Assembly: GCA_029262065.1 (NCBI GenBank)
Contig: JAJDAC010000022.1
Coordinates: 251,982-315,981 of the forward strand
Origin: Candidatus Krumholzibacteriota bacterium
Lineage (GTDB): Bacteria; Krumholzibacteriota; Krumholzibacteriia; JAJRXK01
Length of the DNA stretch: 64,000 nt
Direction: 5' to 3'
Part shown: piece by piece, positions 44,198 through 63,996 of the stretch
Position numbering within the stretch: the stretch's first letter is position 1
Layout: each line of letters starts with the position of its first letter
Notes under the pieces: generated by a model
The model's input: only the letters and a program-made list of their open reading frames with translations
What the model was told of the DNA's origin: nothing
Database searches by the model: none
Position numbers and translations under genes: made by a program

Positions 44198-44202
44198 TGT
44201 TC

Positions 44203-44973: not shown

Positions 44974-44993
44974 CGCTCTTCGCTCCAGTTGGA

Positions 44994-46343: not shown

Positions 46344-47653
46344 ACGTCGAGCAGCAGGTCGTGCTGCACGAGGGTTTGGGCCACTTCGGCCAGAAGCTCT
46401 TCATCAAAACCAGAGCGCTCGGCAATGTCGGCCAGACAGTGCTTTCCATCGGAGTAGTTCAGCAACCACAACATCGCCCGCTCCTTGATGTTGGAGTCGC
46501 GATGCCCACCCCAGGCCGAGTAGAGCCCCCGGCGCCCCAACTGCGGCTCGCCACGGCCCAACGGGTTGCGGTAGCGAGGGGAAGAGTCGAACGCCACGAC
46601 CAGGCGAAGCAAAGCCTCGAGTGTTTCTTCCAACGACTCGCGCTGCACGAATGAAAGGTTGTCGAGTGAAGTGTGATACTCGGGGTAGGTTCCGTACGGC
46701 GTTCGGGACAGGCGCCCGACTGCGAGGTCAATGCCGGGGGATCCGTACTGGCGCTCATCGTAGCCGTCCGGCGTAAACGGAAGCACGCCGAAAGCAACAT
46801 TCATGTCCCGAAGCTGTCGCTCGATGAGCAGGTCCACCTCGGCCCCCGCCTGACGACTCTGCTTGTAGGTCAGCGGCCCTTTGTCACCCACGCCGGCCAC
46901 CACCAGCCCACCTCGGACCAATCCCAAGCGGGCCTCATTCTGGGCCAACCAGGTGAGAGCTCCAATGGTCCCCGGCGCGAACACAAAGCGGTACGAATAT
47001 TCCAACTTCATGTCGCGCAGCGCGCGCGCCAACTCGTGCAGGACCACCACGGCCGAAAGGTTGTCGTTTGCCAATGAAGGATGGCAGACGTGCGCCGAAA
47101 AAAGAAATTCGTCGTCGCGACGACCCTGAACCAAGCACTCTCCGTAGGTCAACGCTCCCTCTTCAAGCGAGCTGTCGATGCAAACCTCGTAGGTTTCGTC
47201 GGCCAACGACTCACGCTGATCGTGCGTCAGGCAGAATCCCCAGGCCTCGTGGTAGTACGATGTCTTGTACGGGATTGCTTGCGGCAGGCCTTCCAGGGAA
47301 TGCAGGTTGCCCTGCAATTCAGCCAGCGACATTTGCCGGCGCACCGGAATGCTATAGTTCACCACGTGCAGATTTGATTGCGTAAAGTCCACGACCTTCG
47401 CGCCATCGGCGCCCTTGATCCAGGCATCGCGAATATTCCACTCGCGCGGAACCGTCCAATCAAAGACCGGAGTACCCGTCGGCACCTCGGAAATTTCCAA
47501 CGGAAGGTCGGCCTGAAGGCCCCGCAATGTCTGTCGAACTCCGTCACCGGTTATGGAACGACACAGCGGATACAACCGTTTGATCAATTCGACCATTCGC
47601 TCACCGGCCGCATCGAGGTCGAAGGAATCCAGGGTATCGACGGGTAGTGTCAT
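46340..47653 (-). CDS. DUF4910-type aminopeptidase-like domain protein associated with sugar-modification loci
   Basis: Begins at MTLPVDTL; ATGA overlap with the upstream epimerase gene. M28/PA-like core (HPSLANDNLSAVVVLHEL). I recall this architecture co-occurring with class-III aminotransferases in polysaccharide clusters, but am not certain. Confidence 0.4.
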   Translation of the reverse strand: MTLPVDTLDSFDLDAAGERMVELIKRLYPLCRSITGDGVRQTLRGLQADLPLEISEVPTGTPVFDWTVPREWNIRDAWIKGADGAKVVDFTQSNLHVVNYSIPVRRQMSLAELQGNLHSLEGLPQAIPYKTSYYHEAWGFCLTHDQRESLADETYEVCIDSSLEEGALTYGECLVQGRRDDEFLFSAHVCHPSLANDNLSAVVVLHELARALRDMKLEYSYRFVFAPGTIGALTWLAQNEARLGLVRGGLVVAGVGDKGPLTYKQSRQAGAEVDLLIERQLRDMNVAFGVLPFTPDGYDERQYGSPGIDLAVGRLSRTPYGTYPEYHTSLDNLSFVQRESLEETLEALLRLVVAFDSSPRYRNPLGRGEPQLGRRGLYSAWGGHRDSNIKERAMLWLLNYSDGKHCLADIAERSGFDEELLAEVAQTLVQHDLLLDV

Positions 47654-48189
47654 GATCCGCTCGCGGAAAAATCGGGGTAGCCAGCATCGCGATCGGAGAT
47701 CACGCGTACCGAGGTTGGCCACTCGATGCCAAAGGCCGGGTCGTCGTAGCGCACGCCCTCAGCCACGTCAGGCGTGTAGAAATTGGACATTTGGTAGAAG
47801 ACCTCGACATCGTCTTCCAGCGTCAGGAATCCGTGGTGCACGCCGCTGGGAAGGTAGAACATCCGGCCATTCACCGCGGAAAGCTTGAAACCCTGGTGCC
47901 GCAGGTACGTGGGCGACTTGCGCCGAAGGTCAAGCGCCACGTCGAACATCGACCCTCGGGCACAACGCACCAACTTCGCTTCGCCGTGCGGCGCTCGTTG
48001 CCGATGCATGCCCCGCAACGTACCACGCTCCCGATTCGTGCTGATGTTGCACTGCGCAACAACCGCTTCCATCCCATGACTTTCAAATTCGCGTGCACAG
48101 AACGACCGTGCGAACGATCCCCGCTCGTCGACAAACGACTCCAACTCGATGAGGAAGGCCCCGTCGACCTGGGTGCGATGGAACTTCAC
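47650..48189 (-). CDS. dTDP-4-dehydrorhamnose 3,5-epimerase-like cupin (RfbC family; probably acting on a CDP-4-keto-6-deoxy sugar)
   Basis: Proposed GTG start (VKFHRTQVDGAFLIELESFVDERGSFARSF..) with a GAGGT ribosome-binding site. Rml-type double-stranded beta-helix motifs. The long ORF extension to 48297 would overlap the methyltransferase gene. Confidence 0.6.
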   Translation of the reverse strand: MKFHRTQVDGAFLIELESFVDERGSFARSFCAREFESHGMEAVVAQCNISTNRERGTLRGMHRQRAPHGEAKLVRCARGSMFDVALDLRRKSPTYLRHQGFKLSAVNGRMFYLPSGVHHGFLTLEDDVEVFYQMSNFYTPDVAEGVRYDDPAFGIEWPTSVRVISDRDAGYPDFSASGS

Positions 48190-48199
48190 GGCCTGGACC

Positions 48200-49471
48200 T
48201 CACGACGAACCTTTCGCAAGTACTTGGACCTCGGGAATGGGAACCACGAACTGGCCACCCCAATCGTACACGTGCGCGTTGAGCCGTACGATCTCATCCT
48301 TGATGTTCCACGGCAGAATCAAGACATAGTCGGGTTTGGTCTGCGCCAGGTGGTCGGGCGAGAAGATGGGGATGTGGGTGCCCGGCAGGTACCGGCCCTG
48401 CTTGTAGGGACTGCGGTCCACGGTGTACTGGAGGAGATCGGTCCGTATGCCACAGTAGTTCAGCAACGTGTTGCCCTTGCCCGGCGCACCGTAGCCAGCC
48501 ACCGACTTGCCACGCTTTCGCGCATCGATCAGGAACTCCAGGAGAGCATGCTTGGTGGCATCGGTCTTTTCCTGAAACCGTGTGTAGCGCGCGATGTCGC
48601 CAAACCCCTGGGACTTCTCACGGGCCAGAAGCTCCCGAGCCCGTTCGGTCTCCGGCTTGGTTGCGTCGTCATCGTGACAACCGAAAACGCGCAAGGATCC
48701 TCCGTGCGTCGGCACTTCCTCGACATCGAACAACCGTATCCCGTGCGCCGCGAAGATACGGGCCACCGTGATGAAGGAGAAATAGGAGAAGTGTTCATGA
48801 TATATGGTATCGAACTGGTTCTCCTCGATCAGACGCAGCAGATGAGGAAACTCCAACGTAACAACACCTTGCTCGTTCAAAAGCACCTTGAAGCCGGCCA
48901 CGAAATCGTTGAGGTCGTGTACCTGGGCCAAAACATTGTTGGCAATGATCAGGTCGGCCATCTTGCCATCGTCGGCCATACGCCGCGCACTGCCGCGCCC
49001 GAAGAACTCGACACGGGTCGGTACGCCTTTTTCCACCGCCACCTTGGCCACGTTGGCCGCCGGTTCCACACCCATGACTGGCACGCCATGGTTCGCAAAG
49101 TGCTGCAGCAGGTACCCATCGTTACTGGCGACTTCAACCGCTAGACTGTCAGCTCCCAGCCCCAGGCGCTCGGTGATCATTGCAACGTAGCGAGCGCAGT
49201 GATCAACCCACGAATCCGAGTACGACGAAAAGTAGGCGTACTCGGTGAAGATGTCTTCCACGGCCACGTATTCGTCCAACTGGACCAAAAAGCACTCGTG
49301 ACACACCCGGACCCATAGCGGGTAGAACGCTTCCATTCGGTTGAGATTCTCGGCCGCCACATAGCTTTCGCACAGCGGAGACATACCCAGATCCACGAAC
49401 GTGTGCTCGAGCGGCGTGAAGCAGAAACGGCATTCCCCGGGTTGCGGTGCACGGTCAGACATGGGAAGCAC
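48200..49471 (-). CDS. NDP-hexose C-methyltransferase (TylC3-like; N-terminal Zn-ribbon + SAM MTase + C-methyltransferase C-terminal domain)
   Basis: CRFC...CHEC zinc-ribbon. SAM-binding [10 protein letters not shown]. The C-terminal domain is typical of sugar C-methyltransferases. Confidence 0.6.
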
Positions 49472-50489
49472 TCCAGCTCAGGTCGCTCTGGAGCAATCCG
49501 TCCTCCAGGAGTTGACGAATGTGGGCGATCCGATTGTAGCGGGGACCCTCGAACTCATCGATGGTCAGGCCAAATTTTTCATAGGCCCCAACCAACTGAT
49601 CCACTCCCTTGCGAGCGTTCCACTCCGGTTGAAACGCCGGCACATGCTCGAAGATCTTGGAGCTATCCACCTTGTAGTTACGCGAGTCTGGCCCGGCCTC
49701 GGCCGCAAACGACACCTCGCACTCGGGTAGACGCTCATGGACCAATCTGGCGAGATCTCGAATCTGATAGTTCTCACCCGGAGGCGCGACGTTGAACGCA
49801 TGATCGTGCACGGCCTCCTTGGGCGACTCGAGCACGGCAATGAACGCCGCCGCCATATCCAATACGTGGATGATCGGACGCCAAGGGGACCCGTCGCTTT
49901 TCAACAGAATCTTCCCCGAAGTGAATCCCCAGGCGGTCAGGTTGTTCAAAACAATATCGAATCGATGACGTGGCGATACGCCGTAGGCGGTGGCGAAGCG
50001 CAAGTATGTAGGCGAGAACTGTTCGCCGGCAAGCTGGGCCAGGTCACGTTCGGCCAAGACCTTTGATTCGGCGTAGGGCGTCACCGGCTTCAACTCGCAA
50101 TTCTCGCGGGCGGGTTCGTCCCCTTGTGCGCCGTAGTTGCTACATGAAGAAGTGAAGACGAATCTCTCAACCCCCGCTTCGCGAGCCAATGTTCCCAGAC
50201 GAACGGTGGCCCGATGATTGATCTCGAAAGTGAGGTCGGGGTTCAGATCGCCCAACGGGTCGTTCGACAACGCGGCTAGATGCAACACCGCGTCGTAGCC
50301 TTGCAGATCGTCGACGGTGGCGTTTCGAATATCGAGAATCTTCTCGCGAACCTCGGGCATAGAGGGACCATAGGTGCAGCGGCGATACAGGTCCGTATCC
50401 ATACCGGTCACCTCGTGGCCGGCCGCCATCAACTGGGACACCAGCACGGAACCCACGTAACCCTTGTGGCCAGTCACCAATGTCTTCAA
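49455..50489 (-). CDS. NAD-dependent epimerase/dehydratase (extended SDR)
   Basis: [17 protein letters not shown] (Rossmann GxxGxxG). Catalytic SSCS...YAESK (YxxxK). 344 aa. Confidence 0.75.
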
Positions 50490-51481
50490 CGAACACCACC
50501 TTCATTCGAATCTTCAAAGTTCATGATCTCGTGGGAAGAACCGTCGGCCGCGTATGGTTCCGCGCCGGGCGCCAATACTCCCCGCTTCGCGTCCTTGCGT
50601 GCTTCGGCGATTTGACCCAATACCCTTGCAACGAGCAGGCGTTGGTAGAACCGCTCCTCGCGATCGAAAGTGAATTGCCATTTGGCGATGCGTTCGATCA
50701 ACAGACGTACCAGGTAGCGTGGGATTCCAAAAAAGGAAACATCGCGCGGATACGGCTTCCGCCGCATCAGGAAGCGGCCGTAGTTGAAATACCAATTGCG
50801 CAGATAGTCAGGGTGCAACTTCTGGGTTTCGATGGGGTGAAAGACCACGGCCTCTGGCTCGTAGAGCAACGTCGCCCCGGCATCCATCATACGAGCCGAC
50901 AACTCGGTATCTTCGCCTCGGCCCATGGGGTTGTTGCCCGTGGGGCCCAGGTCGGTCCGAAACGTACCGTACTTCTCGATCGCCGTTCGGCGAAACGCCA
51001 TGTTGGCGCCGAAGGGCGACCGATTCAGCCTTACCCGGTCGGGGCCCAGATCGAACCGGAACGGAAAGAAACGGGCCTGCTTGAGCCAGGCCAGGCCACC
51101 GTCTTCGAATACCGGCAGGATCTTGCCGCCGGCTCCCGCGCAGTCGGTAGTGGCAAACGTGTTCCATAGGGCCTGGATCCACCCGGGTCCCAGTCCCACA
51201 TCGTCGTCGGTAAACAGAAGTATGTCGCCCGCCGCCATCTCGATGCCCCGGTTCAAGGCGAACGATTTTCCGATACGCTCTTCGAGTGCATAACCCACAC
51301 GGCCGCCGGTTTCCTCGGCGAATTCTTGGACCACTTGCGGTGTCGAGTCGCTGGATCCGTTGTCCACCACCACGACTTCCCAGCTCAGGTCGTCGGAAAC
51401 TTCTTGATTCAGCAACGAACGCAAAACGTTCGCCAGGCGCTGGCTACGATCACGGGTGCAGATGATGATGGTGATGTCCAT
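50486..51481 (-). CDS. Family-2 glycosyltransferase
   Basis: [12 protein letters not shown]...[10 protein letters not shown]... LFTDDD is a GT-A fold DxD-containing GT2. Confidence 0.7.
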
Positions 51482-51502
51482 GATGCTGAGCGTTCTGCCA
51501 GG

Positions 51503-52726
51503 CTAGGCTCCGGGGGTCTCCATTGGAGAAGCAGGCGCCGCCCCGTGTCGGACGGTCACTTTGGGTTTGCAGTTCGCCACGCCACGCACCTCAACGCCGG
51601 TATTCACGTAGACCGTGGCGGCTGGATTCATCGTATCGAACACATACTCGGTACCGTAGTTGTAGACGGTTATCTCAATGTCGTAGGCACCGTTCGCCAA
51701 ATTCAGATCGAGTTGAAAGGAACAGCTATAGGTGCTTCCCGACCGCAGGGAAAATGGCTCCTCGCCGAGTCTTTCGGTGGAAGTGTTGAACACGTTGTAA
51801 CCACTGCGATCCAGCATATCCAGCACCACCGCGAGACCTTCGCAATCAGCCAGACCCTCAAGCTCCACATCGATCCATGCACGTTCTCCGCTGTCGAACC
51901 GCATGTTCGCGCCGTCTTCGCCACGCAGTGAAACTGACACGATGCGTGCCTTGTGCCCCTCCCGATTCCGTGATGCGTAGGAAAGCCCCATGTAGGATTG
52001 GATGACTTCCTCAATGGGCCCAATCGACATCATCTGACCACGGTCGAGCAATAGGCTTCGGCCACAAAGGTCAGCCACGGCCTGCAGGTTGTGCGACACG
52101 AACACCACCGTCGTTCCGTTCTGGATCACAGTGTTCATGCGATCGAGGCACTTCTTCTGAAACATGTGATCGCCTACGCTCAGCACCTCGTCCACTACCA
52201 GAATCTCGGCGTCGACGTGCGCGGCCACCGCAAAACCAAGTCGCGCGTACATTCCGCTGGAATAGCGCTTCACCGGCGTATCGATGAAGTCACTGAGCCC
52301 AGAGAACTCCACGATTTCGTCGAAACGCAGTTCGATCTCGCGCCTGGCCATGCCCAGGATGGTCCCGTTCAGGTAGATGTTTTCTCGACCAGTCAGGTCG
52401 GGATGAAAACCCGCCCCGACTTCGATCAACGCCGACAAACTGCCGTTGACGTCGATCGTTCCCTTCGTGGGACGCATGATGCCACTCAACAGTTTCAAGA
52501 TCGTGCTCTTGCCCGCGCCGTTGTGACCGACGATTCCGAATGCCTCACCACGCGTGATCTCGAAAGAGATTTCCTTCAGCGCCCAGAACTCTCGCGACTC
52601 AAGATTCCCGGTGCGACGCAGGAATCGGCCAGTCAGCGCAGGCAGCAGGTCACGCAGCGAATCGTGGATCTCGCCCCGCTTGAACTTCTTATGAACATCG
52701 TCGAATGTGAGCACTACGTCGGACAA
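51503..52726 (-). CDS. wzt: ABC transporter ATP-binding protein for polysaccharide export (Wzt/TagH-like with C-terminal carbohydrate-binding extension)
   Basis: Walker A GHNGAGKST, signature YSSGMYARLGFA, Walker B ILVVDE. A ~150-aa C-terminal beta-rich extension follows. Confidence 0.85.
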   Translation of the reverse strand: MSDVVLTFDDVHKKFKRGEIHDSLRDLLPALTGRFLRRTGNLESREFWALKEISFEITRGEAFGIVGHNGAGKSTILKLLSGIMRPTKGTIDVNGSLSALIEVGAGFHPDLTGRENIYLNGTILGMARREIELRFDEIVEFSGLSDFIDTPVKRYSSGMYARLGFAVAAHVDAEILVVDEVLSVGDHMFQKKCLDRMNTVIQNGTTVVFVSHNLQAVADLCGRSLLLDRGQMMSIGPIEEVIQSYMGLSYASRNREGHKARIVSVSLRGEDGANMRFDSGERAWIDVELEGLADCEGLAVVLDMLDRSGYNVFNTSTERLGEEPFSLRSGSTYSCSFQLDLNLANGAYDIEITVYNYGTEYVFDTMNPAATVYVNTGVEVRGVANCKPKVTVRHGAAPASPMETPGA

Positions 52727-52755
52727 CTGATTCCCCTCGCCCCTCGCGTTGCTTT

Positions 52756-53541
52756 CTAGATGCTTTCGGCGAACATCGGCTCCGCCTTCTTGAAGAACGA
52801 ATATCCGGCGGTAAGCAAGATCACCGATACTGCCGCGCTATATCCAACCCACAGAAAATCGGGCGATTCGTGAAGCACCACGGTGTCGTTGAGACCCTCG
52901 AGAATCGGCGCCACGGGGTTGAGTAGAAGCACCGTGCCCCACTTACCGAACATCTCAACCTCGTAGAACACTGGCGTGAAGAAAATCGCGAACGTCAGGA
53001 CCACTTCGGTAAGATACTTCACGTCCCGGAAGAACAAACTGGCGGCGGACAAGACGGTGCCCAGCCCAACCGTGAACAACACCAACAGAGCAATGAGCAA
53101 TGGCGCCCACAACACCTGCAGCGACAGGCCAACGCCCGACACGAGCAAGATCACGGTCAGCGCGACGGAAGCCACGAGGAAATCGATGAGTTGCGACGCG
53201 ACCGACGCCACGGGAAAGATCTCCTTGGGAAACGATATCTTTGTCACCAGGTTTGTGTTGGCGATGAGGCTGTTGGTGGCGAACCGCAGGGCGGAAACAA
53301 AGAACGCCCACGGCACCGCCTTGACTGAGATGGTGGCTACTTCGCTGAGCAAGAAGGGCTTCTGCGCCACGTGAGCCATGGCGTACTTCACCAGAATGCC
53401 CGCCGCCACGATGATCAATGGCATGAAGATGGCCCACAGGAAGCCCATCATTGACTGCTTGTACTTGATGCGTACTTCACGCCACGTGATCATGTACAGC
53501 AGCTCACGGTAGCGAAAGAGGGTTTTCAGGTGCTCCAGCAT
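52756..53541 (-). CDS. wzm: ABC-2 type polysaccharide export permease (Wzm/TagG-like)
   Basis: 261 aa, 6 transmembrane helices. N-terminus LFRYRELLYMITWREVRIKYKQSMMGFLWAI typical of Wzm. Confidence 0.8.
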   Translation of the reverse strand: MLEHLKTLFRYRELLYMITWREVRIKYKQSMMGFLWAIFMPLIIVAAGILVKYAMAHVAQKPFLLSEVATISVKAVPWAFFVSALRFATNSLIANTNLVTKISFPKEIFPVASVASQLIDFLVASVALTVILLVSGVGLSLQVLWAPLLIALLVLFTVGLGTVLSAASLFFRDVKYLTEVVLTFAIFFTPVFYEVEMFGKWGTVLLLNPVAPILEGLNDTVVLHESPDFLWVGYSAAVSVILLTAGYSFFKKAEPMFAESI

Positions 53542-53558
53542 GTGCCTCTACTGGCCGC

Positions 53559-54530
53559 TTACGCGGCTAGCTTTCCGCGCATCCGGCGCAGCGTCGACGC
53601 GGGGTTACCAGCCAGGTTGGCCACGGCGCGACCAGCGCAGCCCAACTTCCGGCGCCAGTCCCATTCGATCTCCATCTCTTTCATGCCCGATTCATGGTAG
53701 TCCCAGAATTCCTTCGAACGCCGCGACAGCAACGCCTCGCCAAGATAGGCCCAGTACCGACCACCCAGTTCGCGCGCACGACGGTCGCACTCGTGCGGCT
53801 CGAGGGCCCAGCTGCCGTACTCGTGGAGCAGTACAAGTTCGTGGAGCAGATACGGGTTGAATGACTCGAACGCGGAGGTGATCGATGCGTTGTCCACTCG
53901 GACGTAGGTCAAGACCCGATGAACGAAGCCAAAGTCACTTTCTTTCAACAGCTCGTAGCACACCTTCGTGTCTTCCAGAAGACTCTCTTCGGAGTAGAAC
54001 CTCGGTCGCGCGCGAACCAGGTCACTGCGGTACATGACCGTGGAGGGTGAACCGAACACCGACATGGAATGAAGCAGGTGCCGACGGCAAGCCGTCCGGC
54101 CCGAAACTACCGCCTCTTCAAAGGCAAGACCCTGTGCGCCCACCCTTCGGCCGCGCAGGAGATATGCTCCTACCAGACCCACGGCGGGGTTTGCGTCGGC
54201 GAGAGTGGCCATGGCGTCGAGGCACTCGGGCATCATCCAGTCGTCGGCCTGGATTACCTTGCAGTACCGACTCTCGTCGGATATCGACGCCATCGCTCGG
54301 TTGTAGTTGGGCACCTGGGCCAGGAACTCTTCGTGCCTGACGTGACGGATTCGACTGTCGCGCCTGGAGTACTCGGCGGCAATATCGCTGGTTCCATCGG
54401 TACTGCGATTGTCGGCAATGATGTATTCCCACTGGGTGTGGGTCTGCGCCAGTACGCTGTCGATACACTCGGCCAGCGAATCGGCCGTGTTGTAGACAGG
54501 CGTGACGATGCTCACGAATGACTGGCTCAT
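53559..54530 (-). CDS. Family-2 glycosyltransferase (first gene of polysaccharide operon)
   Basis: Proposed start MSQSFVSIVTPVYNTADSLAECIDSVLAQTH...YIIADNRSTDGT, typical of GT2. The ORF could extend to 54602. Confidence 0.65.
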   Translation of the reverse strand: MSQSFVSIVTPVYNTADSLAECIDSVLAQTHTQWEYIIADNRSTDGTSDIAAEYSRRDSRIRHVRHEEFLAQVPNYNRAMASISDESRYCKVIQADDWMMPECLDAMATLADANPAVGLVGAYLLRGRRVGAQGLAFEEAVVSGRTACRRHLLHSMSVFGSPSTVMYRSDLVRARPRFYSEESLLEDTKVCYELLKESDFGFVHRVLTYVRVDNASITSAFESFNPYLLHELVLLHEYGSWALEPHECDRRARELGGRYWAYLGEALLSRRSKEFWDYHESGMKEMEIEWDWRRKLGCAGRAVANLAGNPASTLRRMRGKLAA

Positions 54531-54689
54531 CTGCCCTTTTTTGCTTCGAAGGTTATGCATTCCCGCATGGGTCCATGATCCCATCTGCGACATCCGTACC
54601 ACTCGGGCTGGAAGCGGTCAATACACTGGCCGCCGAGGACGCGTTCGCGTTTCACACCCAATCCGCACCAATTCCCATAACCGTGGCCT

Positions 54690-54745
54690 CGGTACCGAAA
54701 ACGAACGCATGTTATTGAATTAAAACAACTTAATGGATCTTTCCT
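54690..54745 (-). promoter_or_regulatory. AT-rich putative promoter of the 11-gene polysaccharide operon, with ~170-nt leader
   Basis: AT-rich island (ttattgaattaaaacaacttaatgg) upstream of the first minus-strand gene. All genes from 54530 down to 43538 are co-directional with gaps of 30 bp or less. Confidence 0.3.
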
Positions 54746-57218
54746 AGCGCCGGCCCATGAGAATCCAGGGAGCCCACTTGTCCGGAGCGGACCATCGCGG
54801 GTCGTGCCGCAGAAAGAGCTTCGCCTTGCGCAGTGCCTGGGCGTACTCGCGCTGCGCAAATTCTGGCGCCAGCATCGCCCGCCTCAGCACCTCCTCGGCG
54901 GCATCATCGACCGCTTCGGACACGGGCAGCACCACGCGCTGGGTTCCCGCCGAGAGAAAGGCATGGGCGACCTCCAGGCCCTGGACGCCGGCCTGGGGCC
55001 ACGATAACCAGGCCAACGCGGCCTCCTGGCTCAACTGGGTCAACTCGAACGCACTCAGGTGGCCGTTGTCCTCTTCGTGTCCTGATCCCGGCGACAGTTT
55101 CAACGCGGGCCCCTGGGCGCCCTGGGACGGGCTCACGCGAGTTGCCACGTGAAGTAGCTCGACCCTCCCCAGCAGCTGCCGCAGTTCTCCCTCGGTGGCG
55201 TTCCTGCCCGTGAGTTCGGCCACGCGCACGCCCCGCAGCGACGTGGTGAACACGTGGCTCTGCCTCTGACTGGACGGCCAGGTGTTTTCTTCCCCAGGGA
55301 GCGCGGGCGCGCTCAGGGTAACCATTACACCGGATGGGGGCTCCACCTCGGACTGGGCGAGAATTGCCAGCATGGCCACGGACGGGGCGTACCGAACCGT
55401 TGGCCCAGAGTCCAACCAATACACCGGATCAGGAGCGTTGACCGAACCCGTGATCAGGGTCTCGAAGGGAAATCCCACCAGTACGGAGTGAGGCACCACG
55501 ATCACGTGCGCCTTCTCGGCCAGCGTGGGCCGCACTGTTTCGGGCACCAGAATTTCCCAGAGGGCGTGTCCGCGCGCGAGCGGTTGATCCTCGAGGGTGG
55601 GCGCCTCCAGCCAGCCGCGCAACCCGTCACGCCCCACTCCGAGCGAGCGAGCGAGCTTGCCCGTGCGGTCGACAGCTTCGAGCTCTACGGCTTCGAGTGG
55701 ACGATCCGCGGTGGCGACGAACACGAAGCTACGATCACGACCCACGTGGTACTGCAGAAGGGATTCGTCGTCCCACAGGTGCAGAGATGGATTCAGGGAC
55801 ACTAGCCTGGGGTGTTTCCAGAGCACGGTTTCCTCGAAGCGCCGCACGTCGGCTCGCGCAAGCCGCCAGGCCTGCCACGTCGCGTCGATCGAACCTGTAT
55901 CGATTTGCCGAATGTCGTCGCGAACCGCGAGTGCACGCGCGTTTCGCTCACGGTTGATCGCCTCGGCGTGGCGCGGGTTGCGTGCAGGCAATTTCAGCGG
56001 TCGCAGCCAGGCCTGAAAGCACTCCGCCACGAACATTGCCTCGGTCGGAGTGTCCGCATCGACATTCCAGGCCACCAGGTCATCGGCCAATGCCGCCACG
56101 TGATGGGGCCACTCGAGTTCACTCGCGCGACGGGGACACCCGGCCGCGGGTATTTCTTCGCGCATGGCCCACGCAGCCCGAGCGTCGTCCAGCCCCTGCT
56201 CACGTTTTCCTTGCGCGTCGAAGCGCCGAGCGCGGGTCATCAGCGCCACCGCCAGGTTCGTCGCGAAGCGGGGGTGCGACGCGAAGATCTCTATTTCAGT
56301 ATCGAGTCCCGCCGGGCCCAATTGCGACCGTGGACCAGCGAGTCGGGCCAGAACCAGACGGAGCCGAGCACAATCAGGATCCCGGAACCCCAGACTGGAT
56401 TCGAACCGCGCCAGTATCGGTCGCAGCGAATCGACCGCGGCGACGGCCAGGCCAGCCCGCAGGGCCGCCACGGCCCGATCGGCGTGGGCGCGTACCAGCC
56501 AACGCAACGGGACACCGCCATTGCCCGCGGCCAGCAATGCCTCACTCCACCAACGGTGAGCATCCCGCCACTGTCCGCCACTGGCCTCCAGCATCGCCCT
56601 CTCGTGGTTCCACTCGAACCGGGAGGTCAGGTCGTCGGGGTCCAGAACGATCGATTCGAGTACGGAACGCGCCGGGTCAAGCCGGCCTTCCGCGCGCAGC
56701 GCGCGGGCCACACCCAGACGGGCGCGTGAACGAGCCAAGTCTGACGAGTCCATGGAAACGATCGATTCGTACGCTTCGCGCGCCGGGACGTACAGGCCGC
56801 GAAACACGAGGAGTTGGGCCAGCTGATCGAGCCAGTTCGCGAGTTCGGTAGTCTGATCGACCGACCGCGACGGTTGCGACTGCACGATCCCCACGGCCAC
56901 CTCGTACGCCGCGGAGGCATCCTCGAGCCGACGCTGTGCGTCGGTCAGCTGAGCCAGGCGAGCCCAGGCGGCAGCCACTTCGAACGCACCCTCGCCGAAC
57001 TGCTCGCGCGCGACTTCGATCGCCATCTGGGCCTGGTCCAGCCCGGAGATCCGTTGACGGGGAGTGGACGGCGATGCTTCCGAGGGGCCCGAACGCAGGC
57101 TGACCGGGCCGGCGGTAGGAGCCGGTTGCGCCGGCGGCGCTGGCTCACGTGCGCATGCCGCCAGAGCCACCACCAGGAGCACGAGACAGCCGCAAATGTA
57201 GGAGCACCGAATATTCAT
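54744..57218 (-). CDS. Exported TPR-repeat protein with C-terminal CHAT-like domain lacking the catalytic His/Cys (predicted pseudo-protease)
   Basis: Internal start with lipobox (MNIRCSYICGCLVLLVVALAACA). Long TPR-like N-terminal region. The C-terminal domain aligns with the CHAT domain of the 8729-11116 protein, but LHFATHA becomes LHVATRV (His to Arg) and LSACRT becomes LSWPQA (Cys to Pro). Confidence 0.5.
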   Translation of the reverse strand: MNIRCSYICGCLVLLVVALAACAREPAPPAQPAPTAGPVSLRSGPSEASPSTPRQRISGLDQAQMAIEVAREQFGEGAFEVAAAWARLAQLTDAQRRLEDASAAYEVAVGIVQSQPSRSVDQTTELANWLDQLAQLLVFRGLYVPAREAYESIVSMDSSDLARSRARLGVARALRAEGRLDPARSVLESIVLDPDDLTSRFEWNHERAMLEASGGQWRDAHRWWSEALLAAGNGGVPLRWLVRAHADRAVAALRAGLAVAAVDSLRPILARFESSLGFRDPDCARLRLVLARLAGPRSQLGPAGLDTEIEIFASHPRFATNLAVALMTRARRFDAQGKREQGLDDARAAWAMREEIPAAGCPRRASELEWPHHVAALADDLVAWNVDADTPTEAMFVAECFQAWLRPLKLPARNPRHAEAINRERNARALAVRDDIRQIDTGSIDATWQAWRLARADVRRFEETVLWKHPRLVSLNPSLHLWDDESLLQYHVGRDRSFVFVATADRPLEAVELEAVDRTGKLARSLGVGRDGLRGWLEAPTLEDQPLARGHALWEILVPETVRPTLAEKAHVIVVPHSVLVGFPFETLITGSVNAPDPVYWLDSGPTVRYAPSVAMLAILAQSEVEPPSGVMVTLSAPALPGEENTWPSSQRQSHVFTTSLRGVRVAELTGRNATEGELRQLLGRVELLHVATRVSPSQGAQGPALKLSPGSGHEEDNGHLSAFELTQLSQEAALAWLSWPQAGVQGLEVAHAFLSAGTQRVVLPVSEAVDDAAEEVLRRAMLAPEFAQREYAQALRKAKLFLRHDPRWSAPDKWAPWILMGRR

Positions 57219-57252
57219 TGAGGACCACCTGCGCGGCCACTCTATCGCAACG

Positions 57253-57268
57253 TTCATTCGACGTCGAA
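57253..57268. promoter_or_regulatory. 16-bp perfect palindrome CATTCGACGTCGAATG upstream of the CHAT-like gene
   Basis: Located ~35-50 bp upstream of the proposed start codon at 57218; candidate operator. Confidence 0.3.
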
Positions 57269-57293
57269 TGATCCACGGCCGAAGTGGGAAAAG

Positions 57294-57328
57294 AGAAGAG
57301 CCCGACCCCAAAAAGGGTCGGGCTCTTC
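57294..57328 (-). terminator. Rho-independent terminator of paralog A (14-bp stem GAAGAGCCCGACCC)
   Basis: GAAGAGCCCGACCC-caaaaa-GGGTCGGGCTCTTC. On the minus strand the hairpin is followed by TCTTTTCCC. Confidence 0.7.
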
Positions 57329-57356
57329 GTCTCCGTCGCGCGGATGAATTCGGAAT

Positions 57357-58934
57357 CTACTCGCTGAACATGGGACCGATTCGCTCGGTCGCAACCGCCA
57401 CGTGGGTGAAGAACACGTGCTGGTTCTTCGGCCACATGCGAGCGCCACCGTGGTACAGGTTCATCCAGAACTTCTCGATGTAGCTGGGAACGTCCGACAG
57501 ACGTACGTAGCGCGAGTAGGCCAACTCGCCGTCGATCCAACCCTCGACCCAACCGTGTACTTCGTCGGTGTCCATCTTGACGTGGGTTTCCAGGCAGTAC
57601 CAACGACCCGGCTCCAGCATGTGGCTGTCGCCATTCTGGTCCCAATGGTCATGGTCTCCCCAGGTCGTGGCCTGGTCCTGGGAATACAGGTACGTACCTA
57701 CCGGAACGCGACCCTGGTCGTCATCGCGACCCAGATCGCCACGGGCCGACCAACACTTGTCACCGTTGCCCGGCGTACGTCCTCCCCAGGCACATTCATC
57801 GAACGTGCTGGAGAAACCAGGAAACTTGCCGACGTCGTTCATGTCGAACCCGGGCTCGAACATGGCGTAGAAGCGCGCGTACATCTCCATCTGCTGGCCG
57901 TCGAAGCGCTTGTAAAAGTCCATACCGCCATTCGAGTTCGTCCGGCAGGGCGCGCGCAGCGCTTTTCCGAAATACTGATCGTCGACCTGCACCAGGTCGA
58001 ACTTGTCAGCACCACGCCACTTGTCGCGCCAATTGGACTGCTCAAAGTCTTCAAACAATACGATGCGGGGGTCGGACCCCAGGCCTACGTCATTGGGGTA
58101 GGCCGACGCGAAGCCGTCGCCCGAACCGGGCGCGGGCGGCGGAGGAGGAGGCGGCGGAGCCATTCCCTCCTGCACGTACAAGGTGAACGCTGCGGTCGAT
58201 TGCAAACCAGGCTCTCCGTCGTCGGTCACGCGAAGCAGAATGGAATACACGCCCAGGGCGAATTCCACATCGGTCGTTTCGCCACGCCCGATGAGCGTGG
58301 GAATGCCCGATTGGTCGAACCACTCCCAGGAAACGATGGAACCGTCGGGGTCGGTCGAAGTCGATCCGTCCAATGTGACCGTGACGAAGCCATCTTCGTC
58401 ATCATCGCTGACCACGCTCTCCGTACGGCTGGCGTTGGCCACCGGGCTACCCGCAGCGGGCGAAGAATTGGAATTGATGATATTCAACGTAACTTCGTGA
58501 CTGGCGCCGGGGCGGCCGGCGAGACTCGCGCCGGGGTAGGCCAGAACTTCGATGGTCACTGCCCCCATGGGCGGCGTCCACTCGAAGTAGTCACCGCCGT
58601 AGTCGCCAGCGATCGAGAACGGCGCCGCGTTTTCCACCTGACGGCGGGTGCCATTGACCTGAAACTCCACACTGGCCGTTCCGTCGGTCACGTTGGCCCA
58701 CATGGTCACGGGGGGCATGGTCGCCAGGTCGAGCGTCGCGCCATTGGGAATGGGGTCGAACCCTGGAATGGGAATTCCGATGCGTGAATCGATCAGCGTC
58801 AGGCTCTCAACGACCGGTGTCTCGCCTGTGGGATCGGGATCCGGATTCGGATTCGTACCACCCTCGGGCCCGGGTTGTTCGGGCACGCCCGCGATCTCGC
58901 AGCCGGACACGGCGAGCGAAAGCAGGAGCGTCAT
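57357..58934 (-). CDS. Paralog A: lipoprotein with beta-sandwich domain, PKD domain, poly-Pro linker and conserved C-terminal ~300-aa domain of unknown function
   Basis: Lipobox LAVSGC; the start is uncertain between 58934 and 59180. PKD block (VTLDGSTSTDPDGSIVSWEWFD..GVYSILLRVTDDGEP). A PPPPPPPPAP linker. The C-terminal domain carries the motifs VLFEDF..W..KWRGADK, GKFPGFSSTFDECAWGGRTPG, CWSARGDLG, TTWGDHDHWDQNGDSH, EGWIDGELAY, WMNLYHGG. Confidence 0.5.
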   Translation of the reverse strand: MTLLLSLAVSGCEIAGVPEQPGPEGGTNPNPDPDPTGETPVVESLTLIDSRIGIPIPGFDPIPNGATLDLATMPPVTMWANVTDGTASVEFQVNGTRRQVENAAPFSIAGDYGGDYFEWTPPMGAVTIEVLAYPGASLAGRPGASHEVTLNIINSNSSPAAGSPVANASRTESVVSDDDEDGFVTVTLDGSTSTDPDGSIVSWEWFDQSGIPTLIGRGETTDVEFALGVYSILLRVTDDGEPGLQSTAAFTLYVQEGMAPPPPPPPPAPGSGDGFASAYPNDVGLGSDPRIVLFEDFEQSNWRDKWRGADKFDLVQVDDQYFGKALRAPCRTNSNGGMDFYKRFDGQQMEMYARFYAMFEPGFDMNDVGKFPGFSSTFDECAWGGRTPGNGDKCWSARGDLGRDDDQGRVPVGTYLYSQDQATTWGDHDHWDQNGDSHMLEPGRWYCLETHVKMDTDEVHGWVEGWIDGELAYSRYVRLSDVPSYIEKFWMNLYHGGARMWPKNQHVFFTHVAVATERIGPMFSE

Positions 58935-59412
58935 GGCGAGGACGCAACGCGAAACACGAGCCGCGCGTTGTATTCTGAATTGCGATCCGCGAAAAATTAC
59001 CACGGTGGAAGAAACCTCTGGGAACGGGGACGAACTTGCCGCCCTAAATAGGCGGGTCCGACCTGGGATCATTACAAGTTGTGCGCCAAGGGGCCCACAG
59101 GTACACGAGCGAGGGGGCGAGAGCTTCCCTCTGGCGTGGAGCGATTCTTTGTCGTGTGGGGACCCCCTTGCTAATGCCATACCGTGGAGATGTCAACCGG
59201 CCAGGACCCCATCGTGGCGACACCTGTCGCAAGTGTTTCGAAAACGACCGCGTAACGCGTAAATCGGGCAACGAGTTGAACGAATTGGGTGATCCGCGCC
59301 AGGCAGCGACCGAATGAAGCCGCCGGGCCCGCGCAAGGAATGCGTGGGCCCGGGAATCGGCCCCGGTCCGCGGCGATGCGGCCCGGGGCAAAACCCTACA
59401 TATGGACTGAGA

Positions 59413-61389
59413 TCAGGGGGTAGCCGATCCGGCCCGGGGCCCGATACGCTCGGTCGCAATGACCACATTGGCGAAAAATACGTGCTGGTTCCTGGGCCAC
59501 ATGCGCACGCCGCCGTGGTAGAGGTTCATCCAGAACTTCTCCACGTAGGTCGGGGCATCCGAGAGCTGCACATACCGGGAGTACGCCAGCTCACCGTCGA
59601 TCCAGCCCTCCACCCAACCATGGCGACGGTCCGTATCCACCTTCACATGCGTCTCCAGACAGTACCAACGGCCTGGTTCGAGCCGGTGACTGTCACCGTT
59701 TTCGTCCCAGTGATCGTGGTCGCCCCAAGTAGTCGCCTGATCCTGTGAATACAGATAGGTACCCACGGGGACCCGCCCCTCGCTGTCCTCGCGGCCCAGG
59801 TCGCCACGCGCGGACCAACAGCGGTCGCCCGAGCCGGGCGTACGCCCTCCCCAACCGCACTCGTCGAACGTGCTGGAGAAACCCGGAAACTTGCCCACGT
59901 CGCTCATGTCGAACCCCGGTTCGAACATGGCGTAGAACCGTGCATACATTTCACTGGGCTCGTCATCGAACCGCTTGTAGAAATCCATTCCACCGTTGGA
60001 GTTCGTACGGCACGGAGCCCTCAACACGGTTCCGAAGTACGGGTCGGCGACCTGAACCAGGTCGTACTTATCGGCCCCTCTCCATTTGTTTCGCCAGTCC
60101 CCCTGCGCGAAATCCTCGAACAGGATTACCCGTGGGTCTCCCCCGATTCCCGCGTCACTGGGATAGTTCCCCGCGAATCCCTGGCCCGATCCGGGGGGCG
60201 GAGGTGGGGGCGGCGACGGCGCGGAATCCACGACGACTGTGAAGTCGGTGGACGCCGACAGAGACGGTTCTCCGTCGTCAGACACCGTCAGCGTGAACGC
60301 GTGCGAACCCACGGCCAACGAAACGTCGATACGTTCACCCTGGCCAAGACTCGCATCGCCATTGGTTCGATCGAACCACTCCCACCGCAGAATCTGACCA
60401 TCGGGGTCGACCGAAGCGGACCCGTCGAGCGTCACGACTTCGAGGCCGTCATCATCGAGATCGGCAACTTGCGTCAACGTGGCACCGGCATCGGCTACCG
60501 GCGGCTGCGGCTGCCCTGGCTCTTCTTCGGTTGATTCAACGGTCTTGATATCGACCGTCAGCCCGACCCCAGGTCGCTGAGAACCGTCATCGATCGAATA
60601 CGGAATGGCCTCCAACGCTAGGTTGCCCACGGGGGCTACCCACGGGAAGTAGTCGCCGTCGCGATCTCCCGCCAACGCGTAGGGCGACTTGCTCTCGTTG
60701 CGAACGTGGTCACCGTTCACTTTGAACGACACCCTCGAAGCCGCACCATCAACGTTGGCCCGAACATTCAGCCGCGCCGGAAGCGCCGAGAGATTCAGCA
60801 CCGCGCCAGGAACGAGCGGATCGTGCCCACTCACGGGCTGATCGTTGTCGGCGTTGATCAACGTGAGGCTGGTGACACGAGGCCCCGATGGAGAAGGAGG
60901 CGTGTCGGGCGGCAACTCCGAGTCGCAATCGCCCGCGTCCTCTGGACAGGGATCGACACAAGCGCCGATCGCCACCAACACCTGGAAGATCTTCAGATCC
61001 TCGATATCGACCGTACCGTCCGAATTGAGATCGGCACGGCGCTCGTAGCGATCCATTGCGTTTTCCAGGATCAGGCCATCGAGTTCGTCGACGCAGCCTG
61101 ATCCATCCAGATCCCCATATACGGTGCCGCACATTCCGTCACCGTCCTGGTCGCCCCCCTGTTCGGCCGGACAAGCATCTCGACGGTCAACGACACCGTC
61201 TCCGTCGTAATCCTGGGTGTCCGAGAGCAAAGGCAGCTCTTCGTCTGGCGCGACATCGTTGGACTCGCACCCTCCCGTCATCAACAACCCAATGAGCATC
61301 AGGACTGAGACCCGATCCCATGGAGCGAAATTCGCACCCCGCCTGGGTGGTGTTGCAATCAGTTTTGGTAGTCGGCGATAGAAATTCAC
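59413..61389 (-). CDS. Paralog B: lipoprotein with Ca-binding TSP3/dockerin-like repeats, beta-sandwich domain, PKD domain and the conserved C-terminal domain
   Basis: Lipobox LMTGGC. D-x-D-x-DG repeats (DYDGDGVVDRRD, DQDGDGM, DLNSDGTVDIEDLKIF). PKD (VVTLDGSASVDPDGQILRWEWFD). A PPPPPPP linker. The C-terminal domain is about 80% identical to paralog A. Confidence 0.5.
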   Translation of the reverse strand: MNFYRRLPKLIATPPRRGANFAPWDRVSVLMLIGLLMTGGCESNDVAPDEELPLLSDTQDYDGDGVVDRRDACPAEQGGDQDGDGMCGTVYGDLDGSGCVDELDGLILENAMDRYERRADLNSDGTVDIEDLKIFQVLVAIGACVDPCPEDAGDCDSELPPDTPPSPSGPRVTSLTLINADNDQPVSGHDPLVPGAVLNLSALPARLNVRANVDGAASRVSFKVNGDHVRNESKSPYALAGDRDGDYFPWVAPVGNLALEAIPYSIDDGSQRPGVGLTVDIKTVESTEEEPGQPQPPVADAGATLTQVADLDDDGLEVVTLDGSASVDPDGQILRWEWFDRTNGDASLGQGERIDVSLAVGSHAFTLTVSDDGEPSLSASTDFTVVVDSAPSPPPPPPPGSGQGFAGNYPSDAGIGGDPRVILFEDFAQGDWRNKWRGADKYDLVQVADPYFGTVLRAPCRTNSNGGMDFYKRFDDEPSEMYARFYAMFEPGFDMSDVGKFPGFSSTFDECGWGGRTPGSGDRCWSARGDLGREDSEGRVPVGTYLYSQDQATTWGDHDHWDENGDSHRLEPGRWYCLETHVKVDTDRRHGWVEGWIDGELAYSRYVQLSDAPTYVEKFWMNLYHGGVRMWPRNQHVFFANVVIATERIGPRAGSATP

Positions 61390-61622
61390 CTTTGACGAAA
61401 CCTTCGGCCACGAAGACGAACTTGGCTCCCTCCCGCGCGTTCTCAGTGGTGTTCACCATCAAGCCGTGCGCCATTGCCCACAGTCGTGGGCCAAGGTGAT
61501 TCCGATGATGTCGGACACGCCAGCAAGAGGGAAAGCCTCGTCCCCCCGGGGGCCGACCAGTACAAACCTCCGCCGTACGCCGTCGTAGTGGCCCGGAGTC
61601 CGTCAACGAGGCCCGCTTTGAT

Positions 61623-61668
61623 CGCCATATATGGCGCAGGAACTCGCCTGTAACTCTTGTAATTACAA
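61623..61668. promoter_or_regulatory. AT-rich divergent promoter region with two perfect palindromes (CGCCATATATGGCG and TTGTAATTACAA)
   Basis: Lies between paralog B (minus) and the small lipoprotein gene (plus). A 14-bp and a 12-bp perfect palindrome sit ~20 bp apart. The first contains the CCATATATGG core also found at ~34897. Confidence 0.35.
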
Positions 61669-61792
61669 TCAGTTAAAATTTCATGAATTTTGTTTGGGAG
61701 ATTGAAGCCCTGTTGCAAATGAGTCCCGTGAAGCCGCGGTGATGGCGACCAGCCGGACCGCAAACAGAACAGGACCCGAAGGAGACATCCCA

Positions 61793-62317
61793 ATGAAGAA
61801 GACGTTCCACACCGCACTGAACACTGTTGCCATGCTCGCCATGACCGCCAGCCTGAGCCTGATGACCGGCTGCAGCGAAGACGCCCCCAACAATCCCAAC
61901 GACCCGATCGTGGTCGAAGACACGTTCGACGGAACCTACGAGGGCGCGAACACCTTCTCGGTCGACCTGATCGTCGACGACTTCAATGACCCCAACACGC
62001 CCCCCGCCACGGGAACCTGCGTGGGCAACATTTCGGTAACGGTGGACGAAAATGGACTGATCGAGGTCGTGGGCAACGGCAATTGCCTCACCGCGGCCAA
62101 CGCGGCGAGCTACACGCTCGAAGGCCAGGTCGGGCAGGACGGAAACGCGCAGGGCACCATGGACATCGTGTTCAACAATCGCAGCAATGTCGTGGATTGG
62201 CAGGGAACCTTCGACGATGGCGTTCTTACCGTGGCCTTCTCGGGCCGTACCCCAGCCGTAGGTACGATCGAGATCGATTGGGACGGCGACTTCACGGCTA
62301 CGCTGGTCGAACCCTAG
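61793..62317 (+). CDS. Small lipoprotein, function unknown
   Basis: AGGAG ribosome-binding site. MKKTFHTALNTVAMLAMTASLSLMTGC lipobox. 174 aa, Asp/Gly/Thr-rich beta-type sequence. Confidence 0.5.
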   Translation: MKKTFHTALNTVAMLAMTASLSLMTGCSEDAPNNPNDPIVVEDTFDGTYEGANTFSVDLIVDDFNDPNTPPATGTCVGNISVTVDENGLIEVVGNGNCLTAANAASYTLEGQVGQDGNAQGTMDIVFNNRSNVVDWQGTFDDGVLTVAFSGRTPAVGTIEIDWDGDFTATLVEP

Positions 62318-62341
62318 AAACCGCCGGGCAGGTTGAAACAA

Positions 62342-62374
62342 ACGGGCCCCCGCATGTGGCGGGGGCCCGTTTTT
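62342..62374 (+). terminator. Rho-independent terminator (ACGGGCCCCCGC-atgt-GCGGGGGCCCGT + TTTTG)
   Basis: 12-bp GC stem followed by a T-run, directly after the stop at 62317. Confidence 0.75.
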
Positions 62375-62427
62375 GCTGGTCAACTTTGGAACGCCAGCCA
62401 GCCAAGGGCAATACTCAACAAGGCCCG

Positions 62428-63996
62428 CTACAGGGAGCCCCCACCGGTGCGGTGCATGGGCCCGATTCGCTCGGTGGCGACAACCACGTTGGCGAAGAAC
62501 ACGAACTCGTCCTTGGGCCAGGTACGGCCGCCACCGTGGTACAGGTTCATCCAGAACTGCTCGATGTACGTCGGCGCATCGGCCAACTGAACTCGCCGGG
62601 TATAGGCCAGCTCACCGTCGATCCAACCTTCGAGAAGCCCATGCAATCCGTCGGCTTCCACGCGCACGTGGGTCTCGATGCAATACCATTCGCCGGGGAC
62701 GAACAGGTGACTGTCCCCGTTTTGATCCCAGTGGTCGTGATCGCCCCAGGTGGTAGCCTGGTCCTGCGAGTACAGGTACGTACCCACGGGAATCCGATCG
62801 TCGCCCTGACTGCGCCCGAGATCGCCACGTGCCGACCAACAGCGATCGCCCGCGCCGGGAGTACGGCCACCCCACCCGCATTCACCAAACGTGGCCGAAA
62901 AACCAGGAAACTTGCCCACATCGTTCATCTCGAAGCCTTCTTCGAAACGAGCGTAGTAGCGCGCGTACATTTCCATGGGTTGACCATCGAAACGCTTCAC
63001 GAAGTCCATCGCGCCATTGGTCGCGTCGTCGCACGGGGCCCGCAGCACAGTGCCGAACTCGGCGGACGGAACGCGCACCAGATCGTACTTGTCCGCACCA
63101 CGCCATTGGTCGCGCCACGACTCCTGCGAGAAGTCCTCGAACAGCACCACGCGCCCGTCGCTTTCGATCCCTACGTCATTGGGATATTGCGACGCGAAGC
63201 CCTCTGAGTCGGACCCCGGTTCCGGATTCGGCGTTATCACGAAGAACCCGAACTCCTGGTCGTTCGTCATACCCGCCCGGCTGTCGTCGGTGACCCGTAG
63301 CAGCACGGAATGGACTCCCGTGTCAAACGAACGACTCAGCGTCGAGCCCGATCCCAGGTAGTTGGGAATGGCCGACCGCGATGTGTCATACCAATCCCAG
63401 CCTATGATAGTGCCATCGAGATCGTAGGATTGGGTTCCTACCAGCGCCAGCGTCGCAATACCGTCGCGGTCGTCATCGATCACGAGGCGCTGAGTGCCGT
63501 GCGCATCGGCTACTGGCGGCAGGCTCAACAGCCCCTCGCCGCTTTCGACCACCACGAAATTCACGGTATACGGAGCACTCGATTGTTCAACGGTATCGTC
63601 TTTTCCGAATGCGGTTACCGTCAATATGGTCCGGCCCATGGGAGGCAACCACGGAAGATATTCGCCGTCTTCATAGCCCGCGATCGCGAACGGACGGGTA
63701 TCGCGCAAGCTCGACTGTTTGTCATCCAGTTCGAAACGTACGCTCCTGGTCGTGCTGCTCGCATTGGCCCGCAACGTAACGCGTCGATGTTCGGCTACAT
63801 TGAGCACAGCGTCACGCGGCAGCGGGTCGAACCCCTCGACGGGTTCGCCGGTTCGGGTATCGACAAGACTCAGGCTCGTGATCGCCACGGGATCACAGGC
63901 GCCATCCACGCACGGATCCTCTTCCACCGAGGCCGGCCGCTGCGCGATTTCGCAACCCGCGGTGACGACGAGACAAAGCAGGATCCAGGTTCGCAA
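62428..63996 (-). CDS. Paralog C: lipoprotein with beta-sandwich domain, PKD domain and the conserved C-terminal domain
   Basis: Lipobox LVVTAGC. PKD (GTIIGWDWYD..GVHSVLLRVTDDS). The C-terminal domain has the same invariant motifs (CWSARGDLG, TTWGDHDHWDQNGDSH, WMNLYHGG). Confidence 0.5.
   Translation of the reverse strand: MRTWILLCLVVTAGCEIAQRPASVEEDPCVDGACDPVAITSLSLVDTRTGEPVEGFDPLPRDAVLNVAEHRRVTLRANASSTTRSVRFELDDKQSSLRDTRPFAIAGYEDGEYLPWLPPMGRTILTVTAFGKDDTVEQSSAPYTVNFVVVESGEGLLSLPPVADAHGTQRLVIDDDRDGIATLALVGTQSYDLDGTIIGWDWYDTSRSAIPNYLGSGSTLSRSFDTGVHSVLLRVTDDSRAGMTNDQEFGFFVITPNPEPGSDSEGFASQYPNDVGIESDGRVVLFEDFSQESWRDQWRGADKYDLVRVPSAEFGTVLRAPCDDATNGAMDFVKRFDGQPMEMYARYYARFEEGFEMNDVGKFPGFSATFGECGWGGRTPGAGDRCWSARGDLGRSQGDDRIPVGTYLYSQDQATTWGDHDHWDQNGDSHLFVPGEWYCIETHVRVEADGLHGLLEGWIDGELAYTRRVQLADAPTYIEQFWMNLYHGGGRTWPKDEFVFFANVVVATERIGPMHRTGGGSL

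Follow-up and report, generated by a model that had tools for sequence, protein, structure and literature searches.

In bacteria, CHAT proteases are coming to be seen as switches activated by signals (Craspase, SAVED-CHAT, the anti-sigma factor DdvA), and hardly anything is known about the many TPR-CHAT proteins which are secreted or periplasmic. DdvA of Myxococcus xanthus (PDB 8ROT/8RW5) is the one characterized extracytoplasmic TPR-CHAT protein, in which this architecture forms the periplasmic sensor module, and its catalytic His-Cys dyad has been described as H862/C907 (PMC11506125). In Csx29 the corresponding pair, H615/C658, was shown by mutation to be required for activity (PMC10028731). 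Dyad loss is a known phenomenon in the caspase superfamily, where pseudo-variants make up 8.6% of bacterial orthocaspases (858/9,994; PMC6426788), and among open-access papers we found none describing dyad loss for CHAT. Here we describe a gene at 54744-57218, on the minus strand of a 64,000-nucleotide stretch of DNA (the window) from a Candidatus Krumholzibacteriota bacterium, whose TPR-CHAT product lacks both dyad residues. The protein is probably an extracytoplasmic, lipid-anchored and retained pseudoprotease which serves as a non-catalytic scaffold or adaptor in the cell envelope. The features of the gene on which this reading is built are as follows.

54744..57218, minus strand: complete open reading frame (ORF) of the dyad-less TPR-CHAT lipoprotein, 824 amino acids plus stop, from the ORF list.
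57225..57230, minus strand: Shine-Dalgarno-like AGGTGG, 6 nt 5' of the ATG at 57218, read from the sequence.
57153..57218, minus strand: lipoprotein-type signal peptide MNIRCSYICGCLVLLVVALAAC, lipobox L-A-A-C with Cys22, read from the translation.
57054..57152, minus strand: Pro/Ala/Ser-rich disordered tether AREPAPPAQPAPTAGPVSLRSGPSEASPSTPRQR, about residues 23-55, with predicted local distance difference test scores (pLDDT) <50 for residues 18-54.
55818..57062, minus strand: helical-repeat (degenerate TPR-like) solenoid, residues 53-467.
54750..55766, minus strand: CHAT (caspase-like) alpha/beta domain, residues 485-823, of which the Pfam match spans 549-823.
55137..55139, minus strand: Arg694, codon CGC, at the catalytic His position (H in 150/153 aligned sequences; column of DdvA H862 and Csx29 H615).
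54996..54998, minus strand: Pro741, codon CCC, at the catalytic Cys position (C in 151/153; column of DdvA C907 and Csx29 C658).

An original prediction, made by eye against the CHAT domain of a second in-window gene (8729-11116), had the catalytic His replaced by Arg and the catalytic Cys by Pro, and both substitutions were borne out by four alignments: BLASTP against the 8729-11116 protein and MAFFT alignments with 6, 13 and 153 sequences. In all four the segment LLHVATR (LLHVATR--VSPS) falls on the family motif hHhATHG (hHhATHGxv), with Arg694 in the His column, and LAWLSWPQAG falls on LAVLSACxTxxG....GEG; none of them placed a His and a Cys at the catalytic positions. The 153-sequence alignment contained Arg at the His column in this protein only, the invariant Gly which follows the His being deleted. 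The same alignment put Pro741 in the Cys column, with Trp740 in place of a conserved Ala and seven loop residues gone after Pro741, and this missing G...GEG loop includes a nearly invariant G and the E-G pair. The smaller alignments opened the seven-residue gap directly after LS, and the catalytic Cys is absent under either placement. No Cys occurs in the protein beyond residue 400, and the other reading frames of the gene contained no hidden catalytic motif and no frameshift artefact.

In a further set of 77 homologs the His column holds H in 75/77 and the Cys column C in 76/77. Since a full-length profile searched against the PDB was swamped by TPR proteins, a CHAT-only profile (A3) was used instead, and the two columns, as counted from the printed alignment, correspond to H862/C907 of DdvA and H615/C658 of Csx29. 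Besides the dyad, further near-invariant residues of the catalytic half have been replaced (E653Q, D718N, A740W, R752H, A764L, W767S), in addition to the deleted G and EG loop residues. The scaffold motifs quoted in the original prediction are real and are kept by the protein (P584-F585-E586-L588; F754, A757, G758, R761), and D771 is also retained. Taken together the alignments support the loss of both catalytic residues with the CHAT fold kept. A protein with this active-site sequence is expected to be unable to perform cysteine-protease chemistry, and by sequence it is to be classed as a pseudoenzyme, that is, homologous to active enzymes and without the essential catalytic residues.

Pfam CHAT (PF12770, of the caspase-like clan CD) matched residues 549-823 with an E value of 1.1e-19 and 71.4 bits (cut-off 24), covering profile positions 3-289 of 289, while TPR models matched only below their Pfam gathering scores and NCBIfam gave no match to the protein. 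The AlphaFold2 model, built from a 91-sequence alignment, had a mean pLDDT of 84.8 and a predicted template modeling score of 0.85 and consisted of a solenoid (residues 53-467) followed by an alpha/beta domain (485-822), so that a caspase-type alpha/beta fold is joined to a helical-repeat region in the predicted model. The best PDB matches of the model by Foldseek were Csx29 (8eey_B, E=3.5e-13), DdvA (8rw5, 8rot) and human separase. As modeled, the protein is of the full-length TPR-CHAT/separase-type architecture.

The N-terminus reads MNIR-CSYICGCLVLLVVA-LAAC, with Cys22 as the lipobox cysteine, and was matched by eye to the lipobox consensus [LVI][ASTVI][GAS]C. In the AlphaFold2 model residues 2-22 form a helix which is followed by the disordered stretch, and about 45% of full-length homologs likewise begin with a signal-like hydrophobic stretch. 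The protein is predicted from its N-terminal sequence to be tethered to the membrane on the periplasmic side. A longer version starting from a TTG at 57311 was considered and is unlikely, because this start would overlap a strong intrinsic terminator (57328-57295).

Loss of both dyad residues is rare among relatives of this protein. Among the 152 other CHAT regions recovered by the exhaustive search it was seen in P0099 only, with one further fragment lacking the His column, and 74 of 75 homologs of the active paralog keep both residues, the remaining one (P0226) having His changed to Tyr. In these TPR-CHAT subfamilies fewer than 1% of members have thus lost both residues. In P0099, where both dyad residues are gone, the catalytic region resembles frameshifted, Arg/Ser-rich sequence, and P0226 (1335 amino acids) has Tyr for the catalytic His with the Cys kept. 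These two are possible further inactive CHAT proteins. A clade of dead CHAT proteins was rejected, since P0099 looks frameshifted and P0226 carries only the His to Tyr change.

The original prediction had called the protein a retained but inactive paralog. Its predicted inactivity is solid, given the loss of the dyad, while retention of the gene as opposed to decay is supported indirectly, by an intact ORF and by excess divergence in the catalytic half alone. The term paralog holds in a loose sense, as identity to the 8729-11116 protein is about 25% in the CHAT domain (21% over the full length) and the protein is closer to other subfamily members (29-40%).

Close relatives of the gene were sought on a large scale. 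A word-indexed search of 5.8 billion protein clusters returned the protein itself and four matches at 28-30% identity only, and exhaustive phmmer against 1.84 billion representatives returned only the protein itself at E<1e-30, the next best match scoring 111 bits, with no relative above about 40% identity among these representatives. The GTDB representatives include neither the source genome nor any syntenic relative, and when scanned with the adjacent GT2 gene they gave a best match of 43% identity, in a Gemmatimonadota metagenome-assembled genome and without synteny; named matches also point to Gemmatimonadota-like organisms. The sole other copy of the gene that was found lies on a Logan contig (L001) which is 100% identical to window positions 53319-62887 (9,569 bp) and on which the same protein was called independently. 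Single-nucleotide differences between assemblies were considered and were uninformative, because of this complete identity, and as the collections searched held no orthologue a ratio of nonsynonymous to synonymous substitution rates was impossible to obtain. The active paralog is almost as isolated, likewise without a relative above 35% identity (best match 378 bits, versus 112 for the dyad-less protein), which indicates that the lineage is undersampled and that the isolation of the dyad-less protein is not diagnostic.

We therefore used an internal control, in which identity of the protein to its family was compared with identity of the other members to each other for three regions of the CHAT domain.

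N-terminal part (548-640): protein versus family 38.9%, others versus others 41.9%.
Catalytic half (641-780): protein versus family 30.5%, others versus others 47.5%.
C-terminal tail (781-824): protein versus family 40.6%, others versus others 43.5%.

The ratio of catalytic to flank identity was 0.774 for the protein and 1.118 +/- 0.077 for the others (z=-4.4). This is the second lowest ratio of 152, behind the frameshifted P0099 only, and the two flanks rank 27th and 33rd lowest. Of the 21 conserved columns which the protein has lost, 17 fall within residues 647-777, and most of those flanking this stretch are kept. This pattern in the alignment suggests that constraint was lifted locally around the active site long ago, with the rest of the domain apparently evolving like a constrained member of the family.

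The gene could also be a functionless relic, a former TPR-CHAT protease gene which is drifting and whose ORF is still open by chance. The singleton status of the protein, with no relative above about 40% identity, would fit this explanation, as would its having the fewest conserved columns of 153 sequences, a TPR region which is shortened and below Pfam thresholds, and the lack of a conserved gene context. Neutral drift would however degrade all parts equally and add stops or frameshifts, whereas excess divergence is seen in the catalytic half only, with the flanks at the normal family rate, and the frame is open across 824 codons, for which composition predicts about 19 stops (the other two frames contain 20 and 14). 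The deletions at both catalytic loops are in frame, and the ribosome-binding site, signal peptide, lipobox and codon-position GC pattern are intact. Local divergence, the open frame, the in-frame deletions and the intact signals together favor a retained pseudoenzyme over a decaying gene, and we regard the relic as an unlikely explanation, if one to be taken seriously.

The composition of the gene has a coding-like codon-position pattern (GC content at positions 1, 2 and 3 of 0.73, 0.52 and 0.76). The region 54800-57200 is a local GC peak, at 65-68% versus 55-63% in the neighbors, with third-position GC the same as in the neighbors and the excess in codon positions 1 and 2. This placement of the excess indicates an Ala/Arg/Gly/Pro-rich composition and not obviously a foreign origin.

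All neighbors of the gene are on the same strand, with lipoprotein and polysaccharide genes on both sides, and the features which surround it are listed below.

62428-63996, 59413-61389 and 57357-59180, minus strand: three tandem PL14-like paralogs upstream of the gene, with a weak Polysaccharide-lyase-14 domain.
57295..57328, minus strand: strong intrinsic terminator belonging to the PL14-like gene upstream, with a stem of 15 bp (10 G-C pairs) and a T-tract.
57254..57271, no strand assigned: perfect 18-bp palindrome TCATTCGACGTCGAATGA, in the interval from the upstream terminator to the start codon.
54603-54743: AT-rich spacer from the stop codon of the gene to the GT2 gene, without a terminator.
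43538-54602, minus strand: long, tightly spaced operon for an ABC-transporter-dependent glycan, downstream of the gene.

The glycan operon encodes GT2, Wzm, Wzt (with a Wzt_C domain), a second GT2, an NAD epimerase, a C-methyltransferase and an RmlC-like epimerase, and further a DUF4910/M28-like protein, a class-III aminotransferase and a PIG-L deacetylase. The upstream terminator places the gene in a separate transcription unit, either alone or in first position, and the spacer 54603-54743 may contain a promoter for the polysaccharide operon that lies downstream. At least two of the PL14-like genes have lipoprotein-like signals (VSGC, TAGC), at least two have a K319L-like PKD domain and one a dockerin, and DNA identity across their C-terminal parts is about 75%. 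A small ORF on the plus strand (61739-62317, 192 amino acids) with a lipoprotein-like signal (LMTGC) lies between two of them, and the Logan gene call covers 174 amino acids of it. PADLOC gave no match for the dyad-less protein, and its neighbors are polysaccharide and lipoprotein genes and not those of an anti-phage defense locus, as would be expected for CHAT systems such as Craspase, SAVED-CHAT or the gasdermin proteases.

The original prediction had also placed a 16-bp perfect palindrome in the promoter of the gene. The palindrome (CATTCGACGTCGAATG) is present, once in the window at 57255-57270, and extends to the 18-mer listed above, but no sigma-70-like promoter was detected near it and Rfam gave nothing at gathering score on the leader region. 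The 18-mer follows the terminator stem by 24 nt and precedes the ATG by 36 nt, contains an in-frame ATG, and is the longest perfect palindrome in the window. Palindromes of at least 18 bp are expected 0.38 times per random 64 kb and occur in 29% of Markov-1 random sequences, so that the 18-mer is by itself not beyond chance. It may be an operator.

The second CHAT gene of the window, at 8729-11116 on the minus strand, encodes an active TPR-CHAT protein with a signal peptide. Its C-terminus consists of a hydrophobic helix and a basic tail (PQASSPLIWFMVAGVGFILIVARSIRRA) resembling a C-terminal sorting or anchor signal, for which NCBIfam gave no sorting-signal match. The adjacent gene (11199-12836, minus strand) encodes a fusion protein which begins with a lipoprotein-like signal, contains a sulfatase domain and has TPR repeats at the C-terminus.

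For a retained envelope pseudoprotease we propose the following mode of action. The lipoprotein signal and the flexible Pro/Ala-rich tether would anchor the TPR-like solenoid and the CHAT domain outside the cytoplasm. With the dyad swapped for Arg694/Pro741 and the loop shortened by 7 residues, cysteine-protease chemistry would not take place there, and constraint on the rest of the protein would point most likely to a non-catalytic function. The protein would then probably bind other proteins in the cell envelope, as a scaffold or adaptor, by way of its TPR solenoid and of those CHAT surfaces that survive. Candidate partners are encoded in the locus, namely the three PL14-like lipoproteins and the products of the GT2/Wzm/Wzt operon, which we suggest tentatively from position, and a role tied to the envelope polysaccharide locus is likewise a guess from position.

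Several observations weigh against this proposal. The support for purifying selection is indirect, as no orthologue is present in the collections searched, and the protein keeps 43/64 of the columns which are conserved at >=85%, the fewest of 153 sequences (median 61). Confidence in the AlphaFold2 model is inherited from an alignment of active homologs and is no independent proof of folding. The upstream terminator and the AT-rich downstream spacer of about 160 nt may make this a stand-alone gene, and active homologs occur in unrelated contexts with no conserved partner to back the polysaccharide link (two homolog contigs).

The dead CHAT domain could alternatively act as a cFLIP-like regulator, pairing with an active TPR-CHAT protease such as the 8729-11116 product and modulating or completing its active site. 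Caspase-fold enzymes act as dimers, and the periplasmic TPR-CHAT part of DdvA is dimeric with the partner protomer proposed to complete the active site (PMC11506125); the pairing would be akin to that of the DdvA protomers, whose active sites are each faced by the other protomer. The two proteins are encoded by the only two CHAT genes in the window, and as both have N-terminal signal sequences they would share a compartment. Csx29 and separase are however monomeric TPR-CHAT proteins, and the two in-window proteins are only about 25% identical in the CHAT domain and are encoded about 43 kb apart with no sign of co-regulation. We consider such a pairing improbable.

A role as substrate trap or decoy, which the original prediction had put beside that of adaptor, would have the dead site still bind and sequester a protease substrate, and the kept fold and groove-flanking motifs (PFE, D771, F754/A757/G758/R761) would allow this. 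Traps normally keep their binding pocket, as do cyanobacterial pseudo-orthocaspases, which are described as keeping the acidic specificity pocket (PMC6426788), whereas here E653Q, D718N, A740W, the G/EG loop deletion, R752H, A764L and W767S accompany the loss of the dyad. With so many near-invariant residues of the catalytic half lost, a trap is less likely than a scaffold or adaptor, and we now disfavor the trap or decoy as very unlikely; the adaptor or scaffold appears to fit better. That the protein is still an enzyme through other residues, for example Ser739 with His690, which are conserved family positions that it keeps, is barely credible, since both are conserved in all active members beside the true dyad and so are no replacement for it, deletion has removed the oxyanion and loop elements (GEG, and the G that follows the His), and we found no precedent in the literature.

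A more specific proposal, to which we give little credence, is that of a dedicated non-catalytic envelope CHAT, which would be either the cFLIP-like partner of an active secreted TPR-CHAT protease or a scaffold for the PL14-like lipoproteins and the Wzm/Wzt pathway. If true this would be the first case described in bacteria of a dead CHAT domain put to structural or regulatory use. A member without an active site and with its scaffold kept would show that the TPR-CHAT architecture serves purposes other than proteolysis, much as pseudo-caspases and iRhoms showed for their own families, and would offer a natural dead control in studies of the binding partners of active envelope CHAT proteins. 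As one sequence from a lineage that is undersampled, it carries limited weight for now.

The protein can be set beside several systems described to date. DdvA has an intact H862/C907 dyad of the canonical type, a cytoplasmic anti-sigma domain and, as its anchor, a transmembrane helix at the N-terminus (PMC11506125), whereas the present protein has Arg and Pro at the dyad, a lipoprotein anchor, and neither an anti-sigma domain nor an adjacent gene for an extracytoplasmic function sigma factor. Csx29, of the type III-E CRISPR system Craspase, acts in the cytoplasm in a complex with Cas7-11, its activity depending on H615/C658 (PMC10028731), whereas our protein has no CRISPR or defense context, no PADLOC match and no dyad. 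The bacterial pseudo-orthocaspases (Peptidase C14, dyad replaced by Tyr/Ser) are similar in that the fold is kept and the His-Cys dyad substituted (PMC6426788). They differ in belonging to the p20/C14 family and in forming conserved clades in cyanobacteria and alphaproteobacteria, while the present protein is a singleton with Arg and Pro plus loop deletions and with many pocket residues lost. Separase (Peptidase C50) is eukaryotic, active and regulated by securin, and is a relative at the level of the fold only (10-13% identity). The AlgK-type TPR lipoprotein scaffolds of polysaccharide secretion are lipid-anchored helical repeats encoded beside genes for polysaccharide synthesis, export and lyases, as our protein is predicted to be. 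The likeness to them would be one of analogy only. Our protein differs by its CHAT domain and by its place in a locus of the ABC-transporter (Wzm/Wzt) type.

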